Assembly: GCA_001792345.1 (NCBI GenBank)
Contig: MGGJ01000001.1
Coordinates: 48,486 to 112,485, forward strand
Origin: Candidatus Woesebacteria bacterium RIFCSPHIGHO2_01_FULL_39_32
GTDB taxonomy: Bacteria > Patescibacteriota > Microgenomatia > UBA8517
Length of the DNA stretch: 64,000 nt
Reading direction: 5' to 3'
This document shows positions 19,648 through 32,847 of this stretch, piece by piece; position 1 is the first letter of the stretch; each line of letters begins with the position of its first letter. The translations under genes were made by a program, and so were the position numbers. The notes under the pieces were generated by a model. That model saw only the letters and a program-made list of their open reading frames with translations, was not told where the DNA came from and did not search any database.

Positions 19648-20112
19648 ATGCACCTAATAATTACGGCCGCAGCGATTAGTATATTAGCTATCGGAATTTT
19701 TTTCAGCCAGCGAGATGAACCTACCGAGGTTGTACCCTCTACGGACGGAGAAAAAGTGCTTTCCGAAGACTCCGAACTATCTGAAACTTCAACCCCTTAT
19801 CCTACTAAAACTTCTGACCAGGTGTCGAATTTATTTATTGAAGATTACACGTACCCAGGAGCGACCATTACCAGTACCAGTGCAAATACTTTGACTTTAG
19901 AATCACAAGGAAATGTTGATGCGATAACCGATTGGTACAAAGACAAAATTCAAAGTACAGGTATGAATGTCAAAACATTCGTCGTAACAAAAGCCAATGA
20001 TAATGTGTTAAATAAACTTGGTGGTTCAAACTCCGATCAAGAGGTTAATGTAGAGATTGAAAAGAAATTTGGAGAATCGAAAGTGTTAATAAGAGTTACG
20101 ACTGGGTTATGA
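19648..20112 (+). CDS. Hypothetical secreted protein
   Basis: N-terminal signal/TM; Ser/Thr-rich; no known motif. Confidence 0.3.
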   Translation: MHLIITAAAISILAIGIFFSQRDEPTEVVPSTDGEKVLSEDSELSETSTPYPTKTSDQVSNLFIEDYTYPGATITSTSANTLTLESQGNVDAITDWYKDKIQSTGMNVKTFVVTKANDNVLNKLGGSNSDQEVNVEIEKKFGESKVLIRVTTGL

Positions 20113-20265
20113 TTACTTTGTTTGTTAAATTAAAGTAGCTGTCTAACTACTTCTTGACAAGTTAGCTAAGCTTGGTTAACATACTTCCACTATAACTTCT
20201 GCCCTTATGAAAGGATTTTTCTTAACTAACTACTACTTTCTTTCAGTAAACAAGAATATAGACTT

Positions 20266-21033
20266 ATGGTTTTCAAAAATATTTCATTACAATTACCGCT
20301 TCCAATACCAAGTTTCTTTCCAAAACTTGCTCATTCGTTTGAAAGACTTAATAATAGTATTCGTTCATCCACTCCAGTTCTCAAGGGATATATCTTTACA
20401 GTTTTTGCAAGCTTACGAGAGATGAGAGAAAAGCGGAGAGCATCGGTTGAGTCAAATGTCCAAGGTTTTCAGGAAGGAAAACCAAAGCTTCGAGTTAGAA
20501 AGTACATTAAGCCCCTTTTTATAATTGGGATATTAGCTATAGCATTTATTTTGGGTGTTAGAGCACTTAGTCGTAGAGGTAATGTGGCAGGGGATCAGAT
20601 CGAAATAGGCATTGCCGAGAAAACTTTGGATGTTAATAAAGAGTTTGCTTTTCCCCTGAAAGATTCTGAAGGAGAAAAAGTAGCGGAAATTAAATACATA
20701 GTAGAGAAAGCCGAGCTTAGAGACGAAATTATAGTAAAAGGGAAAAGAGCTACTGCAATCAAAGGAAGAACCTTTTTAATCTTTAATCTCAAGGTATCTA
20801 ATGAATTCACGCAATCCATAAACATTAATTCCAAAGATTACATCAGGCTATCTGTGAATGGAAACGAGGAAGTGTGGTTGGCGCCTGATATTCACAACGA
20901 TCCGGTTGAAGTTCAGGCAATCTCCACAAAATACACCCGAGTTGGTTTTCCGATAAACGATACCGATACAAATTATGTTATTAGAGTAGGAGAAATAAAG
21001 GGTGAGAAAGAAAAGATCCCGCTTTCCTTTTAG
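20266..21033 (+). CDS. Hypothetical membrane-anchored extracellular protein (beta-sandwich-like C-terminal domain)
   Basis: Probable true start at the ATG at 20422 (MREKRR..), followed by a TM helix; rest unassigned. Confidence 0.3.
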   Translation: MVFKNISLQLPLPIPSFFPKLAHSFERLNNSIRSSTPVLKGYIFTVFASLREMREKRRASVESNVQGFQEGKPKLRVRKYIKPLFIIGILAIAFILGVRALSRRGNVAGDQIEIGIAEKTLDVNKEFAFPLKDSEGEKVAEIKYIVEKAELRDEIIVKGKRATAIKGRTFLIFNLKVSNEFTQSININSKDYIRLSVNGNEEVWLAPDIHNDPVEVQAISTKYTRVGFPINDTDTNYVIRVGEIKGEKEKIPLSF

Positions 21034-21036
21034 CAA

Positions 21037-21210
21037 ATGACATCAACAAACCTCTCTAGACAAAAAATATCTCATTCAGTTGTTGAAGAGATAACCTCGG
21101 CACTGAAAAGCGTTAGGCATTTTGGTAGCGTAGAAATTTACATCCAAAAGGGAGTTGTAACTCAGATCACAGTCAGAAACATCAAAAAGACAAATAGTAA
21201 GATCAAATAG
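21037..21210 (+). CDS. Small YezD-like (DUF2292-like) protein, 57 aa; absent from the ORF track
   Basis: ATG 3 nt after the upstream stop; MTSTNLSRQKISHSVVEEITSALKSVRHFGSVEIYIQKGVVTQITVRNIKKTNSKIK; the FGSVEIxIQxGVVTQI core matches the remembered YezD pattern. Confidence 0.4.
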   Translation: MTSTNLSRQKISHSVVEEITSALKSVRHFGSVEIYIQKGVVTQITVRNIKKTNSKIK

Positions 21211-21331
21211 ATTGTATTTCTTCAAATTACACAATACCTATTTTAATACCAAAAGGGTTTAATGTTGTCTATTAGGAATAAAACTATAATTATTTGCTTA
21301 TATAGGGATTATAGTTTGATAAGAGAACCTA

Positions 21332-21360
21332 TTGACAAAGCTAAGTAAGATTGTTATATA
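21332..21360 (+). promoter_or_regulatory. Sigma-70-like promoter (TTGACA-17-TATATA with TGn extended -10)
   Basis: ttgacaAAGCTAAGTAAGATTGTtatata read directly; AT-rich UP-like region upstream. Confidence 0.5.
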
Positions 21361-21368
21361 TATTTATG

Positions 21369-21391
21369 TAGGTTAGTTAATTACTAACCTA
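21369..21391. promoter_or_regulatory. Perfect inverted repeat TAGGTTAGT-N5-ACTAACCTA (candidate operator at +9..+31)
   Basis: 9-bp perfect arms read directly, immediately downstream of the -10 element. Confidence 0.4.
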
Positions 21392-21440
21392 TAAATAAAA
21401 CGAGTGAGCTGCCCCAATAATTTACTCGATATATTTATAG

Positions 21441-21600
21441 TATTGAGAGCTGACCGCAAACGGAGGCTCTCCGGTTTGAACTTATCCGCCAGCTGGCGGA
21501 GTCGAATCGGGGCGCCTCCGTTTTCGTTTGAAAACGGGCGATTAAGGTGAAGTGCCTTTCTCGACAATAGTCGGGAGGACCATTAAAGAAAGGGGGTGAA
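21441..21600 (+). promoter_or_regulatory. GC-rich structured 5' leader (riboswitch/attenuator-like, unclassified) of the repeat-protein operon
   Basis: A 13-bp long-range helix (21455-21467 with 21514-21526) encloses a three-way junction (hairpin 21485-21500 CCGCC-AGCU-GGCGG; CUCCG/CGGGG helix). An alternative hairpin 21519-21536 (CGUUUUC-GUUU-GAAAACG) reuses the 3' strand of the long helix. SD GGGGGTG lies 10 nt before the ATG at 21609. Confidence 0.45.
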
Positions 21601-21608
21601 ATGAAAAT

Positions 21609-22859
21609 ATGACAGATTTACAGAAAAAATTTGCATCTGCTGTTGCGGCAGGGACGTTACTTCTGAACCTCGTTACCCCGGCTTTTGCTGGTTACACTTT
21701 TGAAGTATCCGGAAACGGATCCGACTCTGAAAGCGAAGTTAAATTCGAACAAAAGAATGAAGTCAAAGTTGATCAGCAAAACTGGGCTGAGGTTCTTAAC
21801 GATGTCAAAGTTAAAGCCAATACGGGCGACAACGAAGCCAATGATAATACCGGCGGCAAGGTAGAAATAGAAACTGGCGATTCTGAAACTAATGTTTCGG
21901 TTTCAAACGTTTTGAACTCTAATGTTGCAAAGGTAGACGCGTGTTGTGTCAAAAATGTCGAAGCTAAAATTTCCGGCAACGGTTCTGATTCTGAAAATGA
22001 AATCGAACTCGAACTGGAAAATGAAGTGAAACTAAATCAGTACAACAATGCTGTAGTTTTAAACTACGTTGAAACAAAGTCAGAGACTGGAGATAACGAG
22101 GCTGAAGACAACACCAACGGCGACGTATCTATCAAAACAGGCAATGCCAAAACGACCGTAGCTGTTTCAACCGCAGCTAACTCCAATTCTGCTTGGATTT
22201 CAGGTGGAAGCGGGGGCGGCGGCAGTCTTTCTGCGATAATTTCCGGCAACGGTTCTGATTCTGAAAATGAAATCGAACTCGAACTGGAAAATGAGGTTGA
22301 GCTCGATCAGCAAAACTGGGCTGCAATTCTCAATGACGTTGAGGTTGAATCCGAAACTGGAGACAACGAGGCAGAAGACAATACAGGCGGCGAGGTTGAG
22401 ATAGAGACAGGCGATGCCGAAGCCGATGTTACTGTTGACAATATGGTCAACTTTAACTGGGCAGATATTGATGCCTGTGGATGCATCGAAGATATTTTGG
22501 CCAAAATTTCAGGCAATGGTACAGACTCAGAAAATGAGATAGAGGCCGAGCTTGAAAGTGAGTTGGAAGTTGATCAGTACAACGACTTTGACTGTAAAGG
22601 CGAGTTTAAAGATGCATGTGCAGAAGTTGATGTTGAACTGGAAACTGGAGACAATGAAGCTGAGGACAACACACTTGGCGGAGATGATCCAGCCATTGAT
22701 ACTGGTGACGCCGATGCTGGAGTACATGTCAGCAATACCGGCAACTCTAACGTTTTTGGCGCAGCTCCCGAATTAGATTGGGAAATGCCATGGGGATTTG
22801 ATTTCAATTTCAACTTTTCGTTTGATTTGGAAGATCTCCTAGCAGCTCTTTTGGGCTAA
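21609..22859 (+). CDS. Secreted acidic repeat protein 1 (four ~90-aa SGNGSDSEN...TGDNEAEDNTGG..I.TGDA...CC repeats)
   Basis: Signal peptide ending AFA; 4 tandem repeats; Cys pairs; pI strongly acidic; no recognised family. Confidence 0.7.
   Translation: MTDLQKKFASAVAAGTLLLNLVTPAFAGYTFEVSGNGSDSESEVKFEQKNEVKVDQQNWAEVLNDVKVKANTGDNEANDNTGGKVEIETGDSETNVSVSNVLNSNVAKVDACCVKNVEAKISGNGSDSENEIELELENEVKLNQYNNAVVLNYVETKSETGDNEAEDNTNGDVSIKTGNAKTTVAVSTAANSNSAWISGGSGGGGSLSAIISGNGSDSENEIELELENEVELDQQNWAAILNDVEVESETGDNEAEDNTGGEVEIETGDAEADVTVDNMVNFNWADIDACGCIEDILAKISGNGTDSENEIEAELESELEVDQYNDFDCKGEFKDACAEVDVELETGDNEAEDNTLGGDDPAIDTGDADAGVHVSNTGNSNVFGAAPELDWEMPWGFDFNFNFSFDLEDLLAALLG
21968..22294 (+). repeat. 57-nt perfect intragenic direct repeat (21968-22024 and 22238-22294) inside repeat protein 1
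   Basis: Identical DNA aatttccggcaacggttctgattctgaaaatgaaatcgaactcgaactggaaaatga at both positions. Confidence 0.8.
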
Positions 22860-22949
22860 GCCAACCTAAGGGAAACGGGCTGGTCTGCTAGCACTTCGGC
22901 GGACCACCCGGAACCCAAAGGAAAAGATAAAAGTTATTACATATAAAAA

Positions 22950-25259
22950 ATGTCTGCCCTAGTAAAAGAATTTGAAGAAATCGAAATACGATTAATAAAT
23001 GAGTCAATATATAGTGGTTTTTTTGACAGAATATTAAACCAAGCAAAAACAATTCTTGAAAAGGTGAAAAATAGATTAAATATAATGAACAATAAAGTAA
23101 ATAAAGCAAAAAATTTTGTAGCAGTTTTAATGGTCGTATTGGTTTTATTTGTATATAATCAATACTCTTTCGTTTTAGCACAAACTGCTCCTGAACCACC
23201 TGCTCCACCATCTGCTCCCGAGGCACCGTCTGCACCCTCTGCTCCCGAATCCCCATCTGACAACAATTGGGAAAGTGAAAATCAGGGCGGTGGGGATGAG
23301 GAAAACCATCGTAGATATAGAGACGACGACGAGGAAGACGAAAATGAAAACACTCAGTCCGAAACCACGAACCATCCAAGTCCTACTACAGAGAGTAGTG
23401 GAAATGAAGATGGTAGCGGTAATGTTGGAGATACCCAAATAACTACTGGTGATGCAGTAAATGATGCAGGAATTACAACTTCAGCAAACGAGAATTATTC
23501 AGGAAGTTCTTTACTTCCACAAAATAGTGGAGGTGGAGCTTCGGTATCAAATAAAGATAACGGATCCGGCTCGACTAATTCTGGGTCGGTGAGTTTAACA
23601 AACGACGATACTACTCAACAAACCAATAGCACAGTTGTTGGAAATAATCTTTGGCAGGAAACTGAAACAGGGGACAATTCGGCCTCAAGGAATGTTGGAA
23701 ACTCCACGATAAATACAGGCGATGCAAATACAACAGGGACAATAATTACTTCGGTTAATACAAACATAGATGGTTTGCTAGTAAATGAATTTAATGTCGC
23801 CGATGATCATGTAGGAGACATTATTTTAGATTTCGGGAGTTGTATTTTTGGATGCGCTCCTGGTGATTTAACGGCGCAAAATTCTGGGAATGGTACGGGA
23901 TCAAATAACCAGGCAGAGATTGATTCAAACGTTGATAGTTTTACTTTTCAAAATAATGACGCGGTTGTTGAAAATAATATGACTCTTTCTTCTGATTCAG
24001 GACATAATGACGCTGATAGAAATACCGGCGGAGATTCAGAAATTGTAACTGGAGATGCAAATGTATCTGCAAACGCTTTAACATTTGCCAACAATAATAT
24101 TTCCGGCAACGTAATCTACTCGGTAGTAAATATATTTGGAAAATTAATTGGCGACATCCTACTACCGGAAGGATTTTGCTGTTTCAATACAGTTTCTGCA
24201 GAAAATTCTGGAAATGGTTCTGAATCGCTAAACATTGCAGATATTAATCTAACAAACACCGATTTAACTTACCAATTTAATGCAGCCGATATTCAGAATA
24301 ACCTTATTTTATATGCGAACACAGGAGAAAACGATACAAGTAAAAATACAGGTGGTACATCCTCTATAAAAACAGGTTCGGCGAGCGCAAAAGCACAGGT
24401 TGTTAATGTTGCCAATACCAATATTGATGGTGGGGATTGGTGGTTAGTTATTGTAAACGAAGCAGGTAATTGGGTAGGTAAAATTATCGGAGCACCGCTG
24501 GGTTCATTATTTGGCGGGTCCGAAGGTTTTGTATTTGGAGTTTCTGATTCTGGTGAAATAACAGCGACCAATTCAGGTAATGGTTCAGATTCCCAGAACA
24601 CTTCTGGAGTTAGTCAGCAGACTTCAAATACTACGATTCAAAATAACGATGCCACCATTGTTAATAACCTTGATCTTTCTGCAAATACGGGAGCAAACTC
24701 TGCTAGTAGAAATACCGGTGGGGATTCCACAATAAAAACCGGCGATGCCAATATAATCGCAAACTTAGTTAATTTTGTAAATAATAACATTGTGGGAACA
24801 GGTAAACTTTTTGTAACCGTCGTAAACGTATTCGGAAGTTGGTTAGGTGATTTTGTTGGTCCTGGTATGGTAAAAGAGAATGATAATAATAGCCAGCAAG
24901 CGTTGGGTGGTCCAGCGCCTTCTCAAGAAAGTAGTGTAGGCGGCAACGGTAATAGTCAGAGTAAAAGCAGTACGGTGGCAAATGTATCTTTAACACAAAA
25001 TCCACTGCCATCTAGTTCGACACCAGATTCATCGGAGAATTACATTCTTGGGATCTTGAATACTTCAGATGTTGGAGTTTCAGGAGGAGAGGGAGAAGGA
25101 GAAATTGCGGTGGTAGCCGGAACAAATACTCTCAGTCAGGACTCAACTCAGGGTAAAAAGGTTGTTAAAATCAATCTTGCCTGGTTATTGTTCGGAATAC
25201 CAATGGTTGCTTTATACCTAATTCGACGCAAAAGGCTTAATGCTGATCACACTGCCTAA
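22950..25259 (+). CDS. Secreted/anchored repeat protein 2 (paralogue with NSGNGS...NTGGDS.IKTGDAN... repeats, C-terminal TM anchor)
   Basis: Alternative start at 23085 (MNNKV.. then a hydrophobic signal); Pro-rich APEPPAPPSAPE stalk; ≥4 repeats; C-terminal hydrophobic helix plus RRKR. Confidence 0.65.
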   Translation: MSALVKEFEEIEIRLINESIYSGFFDRILNQAKTILEKVKNRLNIMNNKVNKAKNFVAVLMVVLVLFVYNQYSFVLAQTAPEPPAPPSAPEAPSAPSAPESPSDNNWESENQGGGDEENHRRYRDDDEEDENENTQSETTNHPSPTTESSGNEDGSGNVGDTQITTGDAVNDAGITTSANENYSGSSLLPQNSGGGASVSNKDNGSGSTNSGSVSLTNDDTTQQTNSTVVGNNLWQETETGDNSASRNVGNSTINTGDANTTGTIITSVNTNIDGLLVNEFNVADDHVGDIILDFGSCIFGCAPGDLTAQNSGNGTGSNNQAEIDSNVDSFTFQNNDAVVENNMTLSSDSGHNDADRNTGGDSEIVTGDANVSANALTFANNNISGNVIYSVVNIFGKLIGDILLPEGFCCFNTVSAENSGNGSESLNIADINLTNTDLTYQFNAADIQNNLILYANTGENDTSKNTGGTSSIKTGSASAKAQVVNVANTNIDGGDWWLVIVNEAGNWVGKIIGAPLGSLFGGSEGFVFGVSDSGEITATNSGNGSDSQNTSGVSQQTSNTTIQNNDATIVNNLDLSANTGANSASRNTGGDSTIKTGDANIIANLVNFVNNNIVGTGKLFVTVVNVFGSWLGDFVGPGMVKENDNNSQQALGGPAPSQESSVGGNGNSQSKSSTVANVSLTQNPLPSSSTPDSSENYILGILNTSDVGVSGGEGEGEIAVVAGTNTLSQDSTQGKKVVKINLAWLLFGIPMVALYLIRRKRLNADHTA

Positions 25260-25267
25260 ATTGATGA

Positions 25268-26452
25268 ATGACCAAGTTTAAGGCAGAAATTAAAAACAGA
25301 TTCTTCTTTTTAATAAGCTTGCTGTCTATTTTGACCTATCTTTTTTTACCGACAGTACAAGCTGATGAATTAGTGATTACAGATAATGGTTCCGGTTCTA
25401 CTAACGAAGTTCAAGTTCAATCCGAAAGTCAAACAAATATTAACCAAAACAATGAGAGCAATGTTACAAATGAAGTCAATACCTCTGTAAATACCGGCGA
25501 TAATTCTGCGTCTGGCAATACAAATGGGGATGTTGCTATTACAACTGGTGATAGTAACACTCAGATTACTATAGAAAATACCGCAAACACATCTACAGTT
25601 GAGACTCGATGTTGTACTTCTGGGACCACTGCACAAATTTCTGGCAATGGCGCTAATTCAACCAATCAGATTAATACTTCTTCTACTTCAACAACAAATA
25701 TCATAGTTTATCAGAATGCTACCATTACTAATAATATTACTGGATACGTAAATACTGGTAATAATAGCGCCGATGACAATGCTGGTGGGAATGTAGAAAT
25801 AACAACAGGGAACATAAAGGTTCAAGGAAATATTATAAACGGCCCAATAAACTATTCTAATATTGAAACCGCTTTCGGCCTTGCTAGTTTTGTGTCTAAG
25901 ATTTCAGATAATGGTACGAATTCTGAAAACAAAATAAATGTAAATTTTGATTACCAAAGAAACATTAACACCAATTTTAACGCGGATTTAGATAATTACG
26001 TTACATGGGACCTAAATACCGGAGGTAATTCTGCAGATGGAAATACTGAGGGTGATGTGACTATAAATACGGGAGATATATCGCTTGACTTCTTTATTAA
26101 AAATTTTGTAAATCTTGGAAAAGTAGAAGTATCTTGTTGTCCTACTAAAAAAGAGAAAGAGGAGGAAAAACCACCCCCCGGAGTACCACCATATGAAGAA
26201 GAAAAGGAAAATGGTGGGGTGAGTGGTGGAGTTGGTGGAGGCGGTGGCGGTGGTGGTGGCGGGGGAGGAGGTCAAATACTACCAGAAGCTGCAGCGGTAG
26301 AAGCGGGAGGACCAGGAATCGATGGATTATCTGTTACTTCCGGTAGTGGATTTCAATCTCTATTATTCTTCATCGGTCTTGCTATGGTCACATTTGGTGG
26401 TAAAATTGCTACCAATGAACTTTTCCAAAATACTTCAGAAAGGAAAAAGTAA
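25268..26452 (+). CDS. Secreted repeat protein 3 (paralogue; poly-Gly tract; LPEAA/LSVTSG segment, TM and basic tail at C-terminus)
   Basis: Signal peptide ..TVQA; repeats ISGNGANS...NTGNNSADDNAGGNVEITTGN; CC pairs; a 20-residue Gly tract; C-terminal hydrophobic helix plus ERKK. Confidence 0.65.
   Translation: MTKFKAEIKNRFFFLISLLSILTYLFLPTVQADELVITDNGSGSTNEVQVQSESQTNINQNNESNVTNEVNTSVNTGDNSASGNTNGDVAITTGDSNTQITIENTANTSTVETRCCTSGTTAQISGNGANSTNQINTSSTSTTNIIVYQNATITNNITGYVNTGNNSADDNAGGNVEITTGNIKVQGNIINGPINYSNIETAFGLASFVSKISDNGTNSENKINVNFDYQRNINTNFNADLDNYVTWDLNTGGNSADGNTEGDVTINTGDISLDFFIKNFVNLGKVEVSCCPTKKEKEEEKPPPGVPPYEEEKENGGVSGGVGGGGGGGGGGGGGQILPEAAAVEAGGPGIDGLSVTSGSGFQSLLFFIGLAMVTFGGKIATNELFQNTSERKK
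26211..26272 (+). repeat. GGN-codon homopolymeric Gly tract (low-complexity DNA, slippage-prone)
   Basis: ggtggaggcggtggcggtggtggtggcgggggaggagg encodes GGGGGGGGGGGGGG. Confidence 0.7.
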
Positions 26453-27011
26453 GTCTAAAAAGGATAAAACATCTCCATTAAGACTCGCACTTGGATTAAC
26501 CTTGGTTTTGATCGGTCTAGTTATTATTTTAGGAAGAGACAATCTTCCTACTATATATAGTACAAGTTTTGAGAGCGAACCGGTTAAAATAGAAGGTTTA
26601 TCGTTTAGTGAATTAAAAGAAGAGAAAATACCAAAACGGATAGTGATTCCTCAAATTTTTACCGATCTGGAAGTAAAAAAGTCAAATATAGTTGGAGGTT
26701 ACTGGGAAGTTTTTGAGGACACGGCGGGATGGGGAATTGGATCTGGTATACCTGGGGAAAAAGGCAATCAAGTAATATTTGCACACGCGAAAGAGGGTCT
26801 TTTTTTACCACTTCGATCAATTAAAGTAGGCAGTCAAATTTATGTCCTTACCGATTCTGACTGGTATAAATATGAAATTAAAGAAATAAAAGAAGTTTAT
26901 CCTAATCAGGTAGAGGTAATTGCTCCGACAGAAGACGAGACTTTGACGCTGTACACCTGCTCTGGTTTTGCCGATACAAAACGCCTTATAGTCGTTGCAA
27001 AACCTTCTTGA
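26415..27011 (+). CDS. Sortase-family transpeptidase
   Basis: TM anchor; VIFAHAKEG (catalytic His region); TLYTCSGF (TLxTC catalytic Cys motif); ORF-track start at 26322 overlaps the upstream gene, so the ATG at 26415 is preferred. Confidence 0.65.
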   Translation: MNFSKILQKGKSKSKKDKTSPLRLALGLTLVLIGLVIILGRDNLPTIYSTSFESEPVKIEGLSFSELKEEKIPKRIVIPQIFTDLEVKKSNIVGGYWEVFEDTAGWGIGSGIPGEKGNQVIFAHAKEGLFLPLRSIKVGSQIYVLTDSDWYKYEIKEIKEVYPNQVEVIAPTEDETLTLYTCSGFADTKRLIVVAKPS

Positions 27012-30369: not shown

Positions 30370-31824
30370 ATGGATGCAAATCTTCTTTCTGAGTTCAAGG
30401 AGATAGAAAAGGGTATTTGGGAACTTCAGAAAAGTTTTAAAAAGAAGATGCGCGCTCCACTCCGTATTGTTGCAACAGAGAAATTACTTTCCGATATGGA
30501 TGACGGAGCCGTTGAACAGGGCATAAATGTTGCGAGTTTGCCGGGAATAGTAGGATCTTCCTGGATGATGCCCGATGCCCATTGGGGTTATGGCTTTCCC
30601 ATTGGCGGAGTTGCAGCGTTTGATCTTAAAGAAGGCATAATATCGCCCGGCGGAATTGGTTTTGACATCAATTGCGGAATGAGACTCCTAACGACAAATC
30701 TTACTGAGAAGGAAGTAAGACCGAGAATTGAGCAAATTATTAATGATCTTTTTGATGTAATTCCGGTGGGCGTCGGAGGAGCGGGAAGTGTAAGGCTTTC
30801 TAAAAAGGAATTCAAAGAAGTTATAGTCAAAGGCGCAGCTTGGGCGGTTGAGAATGGTCTAGGTCGGCAGGAAGACTTAAGGCAGATTGAGGAGGGAGGT
30901 TTTATAAAGGATGCAGACCCGTCTGCAGTAAGTGATCGTGCAATTACCCGTGGTATTAATCAACTGGGTACATTGGGGTCGGGCAACCACTATCTTGAAG
31001 TCCAGAAAGTTGAAACTATATTTGATGAAAAAATTTCTCAAGAGTTGGGAATTTTAGAGTCCGGACAAATTGCAGTAATGATTCATTGCGGTAGTCGTGG
31101 TTTTGGACACCAGATTGGTACAGATTACCTAAATTCTTTTGAGCCTGCGATGAAAAAATATAAAATTGAAGTACCCGATAGACAACTTGCGTGTATGCCA
31201 ATTAGTTCTCCCGAAGGGAAAAAGTATTTTTCTGCAATGGCCTGTGCTGCAAATAACGCATTCGCAAATCGACAAATCATTGCTCATAAAGTGAGAGAAG
31301 TTTTCGCTCACATTTTCGGCAGATCTTCCGAGGATTTAGAAATGGATTTGGTTTACGACGTTGCCCACAATATAGCTAAGATAGAGAAACACTCAATAAA
31401 CAATAAGCGGAGCTTGGCCGACGAAGTCGGTAAACAAAAAACAATAAAGGAAGTAATGGTGCATAGAAAGGGGGCGACGAGGGCATTCCCTGGCCAACCC
31501 GTTATTTTGGGTGGATCTATGGAAACTGGCTCGTATCTTTTGATGGGAACAGAAGGGGCAATGCAAAAAACTTTTGGTTCCACCGCTCATGGGTCGGGTA
31601 GGACGATGAGTAGAACTAGGGCAAAACAAATAGTCCGAGGTGAGGAACTTCAGAAAAAAATGAAGAAACGCGGAATTTACGTAAAAACTGCATCATTTTC
31701 AGGATTAGCAGAAGAAGCGGGATTTGCATACAAAGATATCAATGAAGTGGTAACAGCTCTCTCAACTGCCGACATTTCTCAATCAATAGCTTCTTTTAAA
31801 CCTCTGGGAAATATAAAAGGTTAA
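30370..31824 (+). CDS. rtcB: RNA-splicing ligase RtcB
   Basis: 484 aa; GSGNHY, HCGSRGFGHQ and TAHGSGR motifs of the RtcB family. Confidence 0.85.
   Translation: MDANLLSEFKEIEKGIWELQKSFKKKMRAPLRIVATEKLLSDMDDGAVEQGINVASLPGIVGSSWMMPDAHWGYGFPIGGVAAFDLKEGIISPGGIGFDINCGMRLLTTNLTEKEVRPRIEQIINDLFDVIPVGVGGAGSVRLSKKEFKEVIVKGAAWAVENGLGRQEDLRQIEEGGFIKDADPSAVSDRAITRGINQLGTLGSGNHYLEVQKVETIFDEKISQELGILESGQIAVMIHCGSRGFGHQIGTDYLNSFEPAMKKYKIEVPDRQLACMPISSPEGKKYFSAMACAANNAFANRQIIAHKVREVFAHIFGRSSEDLEMDLVYDVAHNIAKIEKHSINNKRSLADEVGKQKTIKEVMVHRKGATRAFPGQPVILGGSMETGSYLLMGTEGAMQKTFGSTAHGSGRTMSRTRAKQIVRGEELQKKMKKRGIYVKTASFSGLAEEAGFAYKDINEVVTALSTADISQSIASFKPLGNIKG
31784..31820 (+). repeat. 37-bp direct repeat copy 1 (last 12 codons of rtcB)
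   Basis: caatagcttcttttaaacctctgggaaatataaaagg; matches 32580-32616 at 36 of 37 positions. Confidence 0.85.
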
Positions 31825-31844
31825 TTTACAAAGGTTAACAAATC

Positions 31845-32560: not shown

Positions 32561-32579
32561 GAAACCGAAATCTTCCAGC

Positions 32580-32616
32580 CAATTGCTTCTTTTAAACCTC
32601 TGGGAAATATAAAAGG
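32580..32616 (+). repeat. 37-bp direct repeat copy 2
   Basis: caattgcttcttttaaacctctgggaaatataaaagg followed by tga; encodes the same ..SFKPLGNIKG* as the rtcB end. Confidence 0.85.
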
Positions 32617-32622
32617 ATGAAT

Positions 32623-32847
32623 TTATCGTCCGTATATATCATCGTCTTCATCACCAAATCTTGGGGGCCATATGGAGCCCGGGAGATATTTAACAAGACC
32701 TTCAGGAGTTAATACGGTAGTTTCTTTCAGGCTAGGATCATTTGGATCACCGGGCAGCTTTAATTCTTTAAACATCTTCTCTCTCGTTGTAAACGGAAGA
32801 AGAATTGGCTTCGAATCAACTTCTTGCACAGGATTATATTTTACCAC
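32623..32847 (-). CDS. Hypothetical small protein (74 aa)
   Basis: ORF with non-repetitive composition, divergent from the rml genes; no motif. Confidence 0.25.
   Translation of the reverse strand: MVKYNPVQEVDSKPILLPFTTREKMFKELKLPGDPNDPSLKETTVLTPEGLVKYLPGSIWPPRFGDEDDDIYGR

Follow-up and report, generated by a model that had tools for sequence, protein, structure and literature searches.

A conserved hairpin overlapping a terminator-shaped stem in the leader of a Microgenomates surface-protein operon: a candidate transcription attenuator

What is the role of a GC-rich island that interrupts the AT-rich DNA of Candidatus Woesebacteria bacterium RIFCSPHIGHO2_01_FULL_39_32 just ahead of a gene for a predicted secreted repeat protein? 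The island lies in a 64,000-nt stretch of contig MGGJ01000001.1 (positions 48,486 to 112,485 of the forward strand; hereafter the window, numbered from its first letter), within the 400-nt gap between a DUF2292 gene (21037-21210) and the gene for a protein of 416 amino acids (aa; 21609-22859). An initial annotation of positions 21441-21600, made from the letters alone, described an unclassified, riboswitch-like structured leader in a GC-enriched island. The island is real: GC content is 0.49-0.58 over 21400-21600 compared to 0.23-0.29 in the intergenic DNA just upstream. Our analysis suggests that the region is the ~240-nt 5' leader of a surface/secreted-protein operon and that its core probably, though with considerable room for doubt, functions as a conditional transcription attenuator, in which a small conserved hairpin (hairpin A) and a terminator-shaped stem (P1) compete for the same nucleotides. 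An attenuator common to a group of cell-envelope genes is our best reading of the element. Four features make up the core:

21445..21471 (27 nt), plus strand: hairpin A, candidate antiterminator or sensor, GAGAGCU-GA-CCG-CAAA-CGG-A-GGCUCUC, -15.3 kcal/mol
21458..21523, plus strand: P1, a rod-like hairpin with a terminator-shaped stem, from the minimum-free-energy (MFE) fold, -44.6 kcal/mol
21521..21529, plus strand: U run UUUUCGUUU, 7 U of 9, directly 3' of the last P1 G-C pair, from the sequence
21518..21537, plus strand: P2, CCGUUUUC-GUUU-GAAAACGG, -10.4 kcal/mol

The plus strand of 21441-21610 folded to -68.5 kcal/mol, compared to -49.0 ± 3.6 kcal/mol for shuffled sequences (z = -5.5), and none of 200 dinucleotide shuffles was as good. 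The minus strand of the same region folded worse (z = -4.3). A minus-strand feature was rejected on the basis of this weaker fold and of the many G.U pairs that would turn into A.C. A leader peptide was rejected as well: open reading frames at 21404-21550 (plus) and 21373-21567 (minus) overlap the element, and homologs keep neither a start codon nor a frame.

All of the helices proposed in the initial annotation were recovered at their stated positions. The 13-position helix 21455-67 / 21514-26, with its single C.U mismatch (C21457.U21524), is present exactly as claimed (21455-21526 is its full extent), as are the apical hairpin (U)CCGCC-AGCU-GGCGG(A) at 21485-21500, the CUCCG/CGGGG pairs (21469-73 / 21508-12) and the alternative hairpin CGUUUUC-GUUU-GAAAACG (21519-36), which has nucleotides in common with the long helix on its 3' side. 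The three-way junction in which the first three had been placed did not hold up. In the MFE fold CUCCG/CGGGG runs on via GUUUGA/UCGAAU into the apical hairpin to form one rod, and the RNAalifold consensus of six close relatives is the same rod with compensatory GC<->AU changes. Folding thus supports the alternative helices but not the junction topology. Two elements had gone unnoticed, the U run after the long helix and a competing hairpin on its 5' side (21445-21471). The proposal of a structured 5' leader with mutually exclusive helices is borne out by shared nucleotides, energies and covariation, and the leader is conserved. In sum, the observation had been largely right and its interpretation partly right, but the sensor part and the junction were wrong.

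To compare the leader between genomes, we used the 416-aa protein, whose homologs number in the hundreds and are annotated as Woesebacteria, Gottesmanbacteria, Amesbacteria and other Microgenomates-group candidate phyla. An alignment of 19 homologous proteins led to 76 loci from species-representative genomes, 74 of them with usable upstream sequence; because the loci were picked via the protein and not the RNA, the sample of leaders is unbiased. A pattern search found block A, a 21-nt sequence inside hairpin A (AGCUGACCGCAAACGGAGGCU, window 21448-21468), in 63 loci, and a covariance model added two weak, divergent cases (L059 and L060), placing the hairpin A element upstream of the repeat-protein gene in 65 of the 74. 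In most loci block A is identical or nearly so amid surroundings that have fully diverged (BLAST and pattern searches), and this near-invariance spans many Microgenomates candidate phyla. The leader is modular and keeps its order across loci: promoter, hairpin A, P1 with its U run, P2, a GAAGUG(Y) domain, the Shine-Dalgarno sequence and the start codon. The alignment of homologous upstream regions that the initial annotation had proposed as a check revealed both conservation and, as set out below, covariation, judged by pair counts against slid partners and shuffles.

Hairpin A consists of a lower stem (GAGAGCU/GGCUCUC), an internal loop (GA/A), the pairs CCG/CGG and a CAAA loop, and it is the MFE structure of the nascent transcript to ~21500. 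In 51 single-unit genome loci, the set used for all pair counts in genomes, 84% of lower-stem cells were paired compared to at most 49% with slid partners, and both sides of a pair had changed 39 times compared to 17.7 ± 3.2 in shuffles. An independent metagenome set of 45 distinct sequences, which were selected on positions 5-20 only and hence not on the outer pairs, gave 82% paired cells and 33 both-side changes (17.9 in shuffles). Lower stems differ by lineage: GAUAG/CUAUC (bulged), AAAUAAACC/GGUUUGUUU, UUACC/GGUAA, and AUCUAUC/GAUGGAU in L060. In L057 and L058 position 20 of the block has changed from C to U and its partner in the 5' flank from G to A, giving an A-U pair in hairpin A, whereas in P1 the position-20 change leaves a mere G.U wobble; this compensation argues that hairpin A itself is under selection. 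The terminal loop varies (CAAA, CGAA, UACA, CACA, CUAA, CCAG, CAAU and others). Only G5, A6 and A17 are both unpaired in hairpin A and conserved, each at 90% or more, and A17 pairs with a U in P1. A U-G pair of hairpin A occurs in 30 of the 51 loci and G.U pairs are numerous in P1; because such pairs are frequent, the structure was assigned to the plus-strand RNA.

The 5' strand of P1 (AAACGGAGGC, 21458-67) is the 3' half of hairpin A, and its 3' strand is GCCUCCGUUU (21514-23). The rod has a GGAGGC/GCCUCC base, small internal loops along its length and an AGCU apical loop (21491-94). Pairing was found in 88% of P1 cells (at most 56% with slid partners) and both-side changes numbered 121, compared to 26 ± 7 in shuffles; most fell in six inner pairs, with 12-22 per pair, that had not been used in the search for the strand. 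The sensor had been assigned to the long helix and junction, but the P1 interior differs wholly in sequence between homologs and in length as well, only the pairing being kept, and this disfavors the interior as an aptamer. In its general form P1 is a hairpin of variable make-up with ACGGAGGC/GCCUCCGU as its closing strands; the U run that comes after it is GUUUUUUUG or UUUUUUUG in most homologs. All 63 block A loci have a strand complementary to block positions 14-21, then a U-rich tail (at least 4 U in 8), 35-105 nt downstream, apart from one outlier at 167 nt for which the search took a second unit. P1 has both the G+C-rich stem-loop and the immediate 3' U-rich tract of an intrinsic terminator, and a scan tool marked 21508-21520 with its tail as terminator-like. 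P1 has the shape of an intrinsic terminator and may well terminate transcription.

Hairpin A and P1 share 21458-21471, and covariation backs both structures at the same columns; the 5' flank, block A and the P1 3' strand covary jointly. At the U run, the terminator conformer was favored over the hairpin A conformer by a mean of 12.1 ± 3.4 kcal/mol across the 63 loci. With P2 included the mean gap narrowed to 8.2 kcal/mol; the window value was 3.7 and that of L076 was 0.6. The terminator is the thermodynamic default state.

P2 pairs the end of the terminator 3' strand and the U run with downstream AAAACGG and is incompatible with the base of P1. In its general form UCCGUUUU pairs with downstream AAAACGGA around a variable insert. 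P2 was judged by MFE counts over the segment from the terminator strand to GAAGUG, as a formal pair count is circular (the anchors were chosen by pairing) and there are inner indels. In 33 of 39 leaders this segment pairs CCG with downstream CGG plus a mean of 4.9 of 6 U-run bases, and of the six exceptions no fewer than four (L005, L006, L011 and L027) have a CUCC/GGAG variant. On its 3' side P2 has AAAACGGA, which nearly repeats the hairpin A 3' half CAAACGGAGG; therefore the central GCCUCCGUUUU has a possible partner on either side, 5' in P1 and 3' in P2. For the window, P1 by itself (-44.6 kcal/mol) and the combination of hairpin A, inner P1 and P2 (-43.9 kcal/mol) are nearly isoenergetic, and with P2 in an alternative, P1-compatible register the window MFE is ~-50 kcal/mol.

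Upstream of the core, two features mark the start of the predicted transcript:

21332..21360, plus strand: likely promoter from the sequence, TTGACA 21332-37, 17-nt spacer, TATATA 21355-60
21370..21390, plus strand: hairpin near the transcript 5' end, AGGUUAGU-UAAUU-ACUAACCU, apparently specific to the lineage of the window, from the sequence

Transcription would start at ~21367. Among the 63 block A loci, 47 have an exact TTGACA, a spacer of 16-18 nt and a TATAnn-type (TAnnnn) -10 box within 130 nt upstream of block A, and the -10 box ends 12-98 nt (median 43) 5' of the block; a separate consensus scan passed over the site in the window because its -10 box ends in A. Since promoters precede block A in these 47 loci, the terminator lies within the transcription unit. 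In 18 of the 63 loci, including L005, L009, L015, L016, L025 and L032, a CTGCCC(C/A) motif lies past the promoter region and ahead of hairpin A, often doubled as direct copies ~15-20 nt apart, notably in Gottesmanbacteria-type loci with no obvious TTGACA promoter. The window has CTGCCCC at 21409-21415, within a hairpin at 21401-21428. The motif might act as an operator, or else as an alternative promoter.

These features suggest the following sequence of events. Transcription would begin at the near-consensus promoter, and hairpin A (21445-21471) would fold first. The emerging 3' strand GCCUCCG would then invade hairpin A to complete the long P1, with the U run adjoining, in the shape of a terminator. 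Termination would be the default, given the much greater stability of the terminator conformer relative to the one with hairpin A. Whatever keeps hairpin A closed would block completion of the terminator and let RNA polymerase read into the gene. Hairpin A would then be the controlled element, most likely held by a bound factor, and slow strand invasion could contribute. In read-through transcripts P2 (21518-37) would pair the U run and the terminator-strand CCG with downstream AAAACGG and so hold the leader in the conformation with hairpin A and P2, and the 3' domain with its GAAGUG motif and P3 hairpin, together with an extended Shine-Dalgarno sequence, would aid mRNA stability or translation.

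Several points weigh against a conditional attenuator of this kind. The downstream gene appears to be very highly expressed (a consensus promoter and an 11-nt Shine-Dalgarno sequence), and a default-off attenuator before such a gene is not obviously sensible. About 40% of the cells for the outermost lower-stem pairs of hairpin A are unpaired in a fixed register, and in some loci the stem has just 3 + 3 bp. Its six core pairs never vary, and invariant pairs (CCG/CGG, GC/GC) are uninformative on structure; the statistics for the eight basal pairs of P1, which were found by complementarity, are partly circular, leaving the inner pairs alone as independent. At ~28 bp P1 is unusually long for a terminator, and the U run in the window is broken by CG. 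P2 lies downstream of the point of termination and is for that reason excluded from the termination decision. In addition, a purely local overlap leaves passage past the second terminator-like hairpin of the two-unit loci unexplained.

These two-unit leaders occur in 12 loci (L018, L021, L022, L026, L033, L048, L050, L064, L066, L069, L070 and L072). Hairpin A with a short canonical terminator is followed by an AT-rich spacer and, after 60-200 nt, by AACGGAGAC-hairpin-GYUUCCGUUUUU and P2. A sigma70-like promoter was found in one of the 12 spacers, and it was weak; as the spacers are essentially promoterless, the gene would be expressed by read-through only. The single-unit form of the window resembles a fusion of both units via their common AAACGGAG.

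Two successive terminator-like hairpins with essentially no internal promoter fit a reading of hairpin A as the loading site for processive antitermination, comparable to boxB/nut, the LoaP hairpin or put RNA, with a bound factor that would make RNA polymerase ignore P1 and later terminators in the long operon. We regard this as unlikely, but it has evidence in its favor. The module sits just past the promoter of long envelope or secreted-protein operons, several of them alike, and a promoter-proximal element common to several long envelope operons is the known pattern of NusG-paralog targets. One such paralog, RfaH, recognizes non-template DNA and not RNA. For another, LoaP, a small RNA hairpin in the dfn leader is essential for read-through of the intrinsic terminator downstream of it in the leader (PMC12691694). 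The Microgenomates leader is like LoaP targets, and more broadly those of RfaH (ops) and UpxY, in leading long exported-product operons with one type of element in several operons. However, hairpin A overlaps the 5' strand of the terminator in every case examined, unlike the LoaP hairpin, and a pure loading site needs no such overlap. Moreover, tblastn detected no NusG-like gene either in the window or among 196 fetched loci, a weak test that used an E. coli NusG query and reached a small part of each genome. The universal overlap of hairpin A and terminator favors local competition, and the two-unit loci favor processive antitermination; we keep both and place local competition ahead.

The apparent strength of expression raises another alternative, that there is no switch at all and the region is a constitutive structured 5' untranslated region, with the alternative pairings as by-products of the repeated AAACGGAG / CUCCGUUU. 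Such a leader could protect against 5' exonucleases, act as an insulating or leaky, expression-tuning terminator, or serve as a substrate for RNase processing. Lineages that lack hairpin A and P1 keep the GAAGUG/P3 domain alone and apparently manage. L013 (Woesebacteria GW2011_GWB1_39_12, 2160-2500) is a natural deletion variant of the leader, useful for comparison, in which hairpin A and P1 are lost while DUF2292 and the GAAGUG domain are kept, as are the promoter and P2 (CCGUUUUCGUUUGAAAGCGG); the retention of P2 there also suits a leader that does not switch. A constitutive leader nevertheless seems improbable, given a 21-nt block that is near-invariant across Microgenomates phyla amid fully diverged surroundings, the covariation of the 5' flank, block A and P1 3' strand, and the reuse of the hairpin and terminator module before unrelated genes.

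That reuse was seen in metagenomes. A scan with the 16-mer core GACCGCAAACGGAGGC returned 120 contigs, about half of which were GC-rich chance matches with neither hairpin nor terminator. The ~55 matches on AT-rich contigs of the candidate phyla radiation (CPR) type all had the layout of hairpin A plus terminator. Most of these belonged to the syntenic locus already described, where genes for a membrane protein and DUF2292 precede the leader and that for the repeat protein follows it. Elsewhere the module stood before a GT2/GT4/deacetylase operon, a Peptidase_M73 gene (TasA/camelysin-like), PIG-L and WbqC genes, a secreted S8 subtilase gene or further genes for signal-peptide proteins, and before these envelope genes too the order was a near-consensus promoter, then hairpin A and the terminator. 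In the 64-kb window a covariance model of the conserved 5' part gave one match (43 bits, E = 2e-11) with a runner-up at 13 bits. A repeat or mobile element was rejected, as a repeat search and the covariance model with filters off found no second copy in the window.

In the two-unit loci and in some 'orphan' loci, a promoter, hairpin A and a short canonical terminator look self-contained, as they would if they encoded a separate trans-acting small RNA of ~60-110 nt, for example a protein sponge, that lies upstream of the gene by chance. This is very improbable: the unit always shares the orientation of the gene immediately 3' of it, a gene essentially devoid of its own promoter, and a single copy in 64 kb with different genes behind it in different contigs is the behavior of a leader.

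The conditional attenuator would need something to hold hairpin A, and a new riboswitch for a small molecule or ion is one candidate, with hairpin A, perhaps together with the P2 loop, as a minimal aptamer that a ligand stabilizes against the terminator. The leader has the mutually exclusive helices of an expression platform (hairpin A/P1 and P1/P2), two near-isoenergetic states in the window and, in G5, A6 and A17, conserved nucleotides that are unpaired in hairpin A. Very small riboswitch aptamers such as preQ1-I and guanidine-II exist, and with these and HMP-PP thiS the leader shares a compact conserved hairpin that overlaps the terminator. In contrast to them, it matched no Rfam class, has only three conserved unpaired nucleotides beside a variable terminal loop, and precedes genes for structural surface or secreted proteins and glycan enzymes, and not a transporter or a biosynthetic pathway suggestive of a metabolite. 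Few unpaired conserved nucleotides fit a protein-binding or purely kinetic antiterminator better than a metabolite pocket. We therefore consider a riboswitch quite improbable and rank a protein effector above a small ligand on account of those few nucleotides, the variable loop and the non-metabolite gene set; a protein appears the more likely effector.

The Rfam search that had been suggested in the initial annotation bore out its description of the element as unclassified. Rfam 15, which covers T-box, glycine, ZTP, guanidine I-IV, c-di-GMP, preQ1, HMP-PP, raiA and the 224-motif set, gave no match at gathering score in the whole window, none at E ≤ 10 over 21200-21800 with permissive filters, and none at E ≤ 1 among 11 homologous loci. 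Signal recognition particle RNA and 6S RNA were rejected on their conserved motifs, besides lacking Rfam matches. A full-text search for the core sequence returned nothing, literature searches for CPR or Microgenomates riboswitches returned nothing relevant, and no paper in the library searched mentions such a leader RNA. The RNA family is apparently undescribed.

The principle of antiterminator versus terminator is, on the other hand, familiar. In the ribonucleic antiterminator (RAT) systems of BglG, LicT and SacY, the more stable terminator invades the hairpin unless a protein holds it closed (PMC5393181). Like the RATs of B. subtilis licS, sacB and bgl, hairpin A is short and promoter-proximal, has an internal loop, and provides the terminator 5' strand with its 3' part; the shared stretch is 21458-21471 in the window, and the same overlap is present in other loci. 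In sequence and internal-loop pattern no resemblance to RAT was apparent by inspection. The genes here encode surface or secreted proteins and not sugar catabolism, and a P2-type helix with the U run has no RAT counterpart, making it an unusual addition to the principle. We know of no phosphotransferase system (PTS) or PRD-domain regulators in CPR bacteria, and none were searched for here. In the N-nut (boxB) systems of lambda and P22, a small hairpin lies past the promoter and before terminators, and the small basic protein is encoded adjacent. Hairpin A is likewise promoter-proximal, and DUF2292, with its RNIKKT patch and K/R-rich tail, might by analogy take the place of N; unlike N-nut, the leader has no boxA/boxB sequence match, and DUF2292 has no detectable relation to N. 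The RNAs of ANTAR antitermination have two small hairpins in tandem, each with a hexaloop, and it is the second that overlaps the terminator, whereas the hairpin A leader has one hairpin with a 4-nt loop. Membership in the RAT or LoaP family, or in any Rfam family, is not supported.

DUF2292 is the only conserved neighbor with no obvious envelope role:

21037..21210, plus strand: DUF2292 (YezD/OscA-like) gene, 57 aa, upstream neighbor of the leader, Pfam PF10055, E = 1.1e-7

In the 74 loci, DUF2292 and hairpin A were both present in 63 and both absent in 8, with DUF2292 alone in one and the hairpin alone in two; this co-occurrence is weak evidence because adjacency lets one deletion remove both. 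The family is strongly conserved, with an invariant GS.E..Q....TQIT.R.IKKT. An AlphaFold2 model of moderate confidence (predicted local distance difference test 81, predicted template-modeling score 0.53) has a helix and a beta-hairpin with the invariant TQITVRNIKKT patch (basic RNIKKT), followed by a basic K/R-rich tail. The model had no fold match in the PDB at E ≤ 0.001 (the best was the AbrB N-domain, E = 0.98) and the sequence no relative there; such a model with no fold match does not establish RNA binding. OscA, a sulfur-starvation protein, is the sole named relative, by a sub-threshold NCBIfam match, and literature searches on DUF2292/YezD returned nothing relevant. DUF2292 is thus a weak candidate for a trans-acting partner of the leader, by inference only.

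The 3' part of the leader carries three further features:

21546..21581, plus strand: 3' domain, a conserved motif with closing helix GGU/ACC (21546-48 / 21579-81) and loop GAAGUGC (21549-55)
21557-65 / 21570-78, plus strand: P3, a GC hairpin in the 3' domain with loop AAUA
21588..21611, plus strand: extended Shine-Dalgarno sequence GAAAGGGGGUGAA (21588-21600) and the ATG (21609) of the 416-aa gene, from the sequence

A GAAGUG-type motif ([GA][AG]AGTG) is present in most leaders, those without hairpin A among them, and the closing helix covaries by lineage (GGU/ACC, GAU/AUC, GGAU/AUCC, GGC/GCC). The GAAGUG(Y) domain lies just 5' of the gene in L013, L019, L020, L046, L052, L054, L056 and L062. 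In several hairpin-less loci GAAGUG is 4-8 nt past a TAAGATA -10-like box, so that the mature mRNA may begin at this domain. Reading the GAAGUG loop as a K-turn was rejected by inspection, as the positions for the tandem G.A pairs it needs are missing. When leaders were compared side by side, an A-rich stretch separated GAAGUG(Y), its GC hairpin and the short closing helix from GAAAGGRGGUGAA, which is conserved across homologous loci and which, being complementary to ~11 nt of the 16S rRNA 3' end, is an unusually long Shine-Dalgarno sequence. Together with the consensus promoter it suggests that the gene is very highly expressed. RNAalifold also placed a long-range pairing between ACC.C in the 5' half of hairpin A (21453-21457) and G.GGU in the ribosome-binding site (21593-21597), all positions being invariant; if real, it would tie the switch to translation.

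The product of the 416-aa gene has a signal peptide and four ~88-aa repeats, which carry N-x-A-x-D-N-T-G-G motifs, and is probably a major surface structure. Two further repeat proteins and then a sortase are encoded 3' of it; the three secreted repeat proteins (416, 769 and 394 aa) contain no Pfam domain. The cluster at 19648-27011 is kept across Microgenomates and comprises membrane-anchored proteins of 154 and 255 aa, DUF2292, the leader, the repeat proteins and the sortase. More than 20 public assemblies contain the locus in identical form. Many records (L003, L004, L007, L012 and others) are titled 'uncultured Gammaproteobacteria' or 'Pseudomonadales', L057 is titled Nanoarchaeia and L066 Methylomirabilota, yet all carry the Microgenomates-specific locus, AT-rich in the first group; these labels look wrong. 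Genes in the window are nearly all on the plus strand, and scans for transfer RNA and transfer-messenger RNA and with Rfam found no such or other Rfam-recognizable RNA genes in its 64 kb. A 59-nt direct repeat, 83% identical, at 31769-31827 and 32565-32623 (796 nt apart, near the ends of open reading frames) is unrelated to the leader.

CPR bacteria cannot be cultured alone and depend on contact with the surface of a host, and to our knowledge almost nothing is known about their gene regulation. An easily recognized, phylum-wide leader RNA between consensus promoters and genes for surface proteins, fibers, proteases and glycan enzymes is a concrete handle on control of the cell surface in these cells. 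A 36-nt model can be used on genomes to list the controlled genes, and the choice between hairpin and terminator is accessible in vitro with RNA polymerase from a model bacterium. The leader also provides a testable functional lead for the DUF2292/YezD/OscA family, or, if the effector is a small molecule, a new and very small riboswitch. More speculatively, and with doubt outweighing confidence, hairpin A might be the RNA operator of a new Microgenomates surface and secretome regulon with an effector of a new class, either DUF2292 as an RNA-binding antiterminator or a small ligand. If true, that regulon would span repeat surface proteins, TasA-like fibers, proteases and glycosylation enzymes, and it would give the widespread DUF2292/YezD family its first function or define a new minimal riboswitch class.

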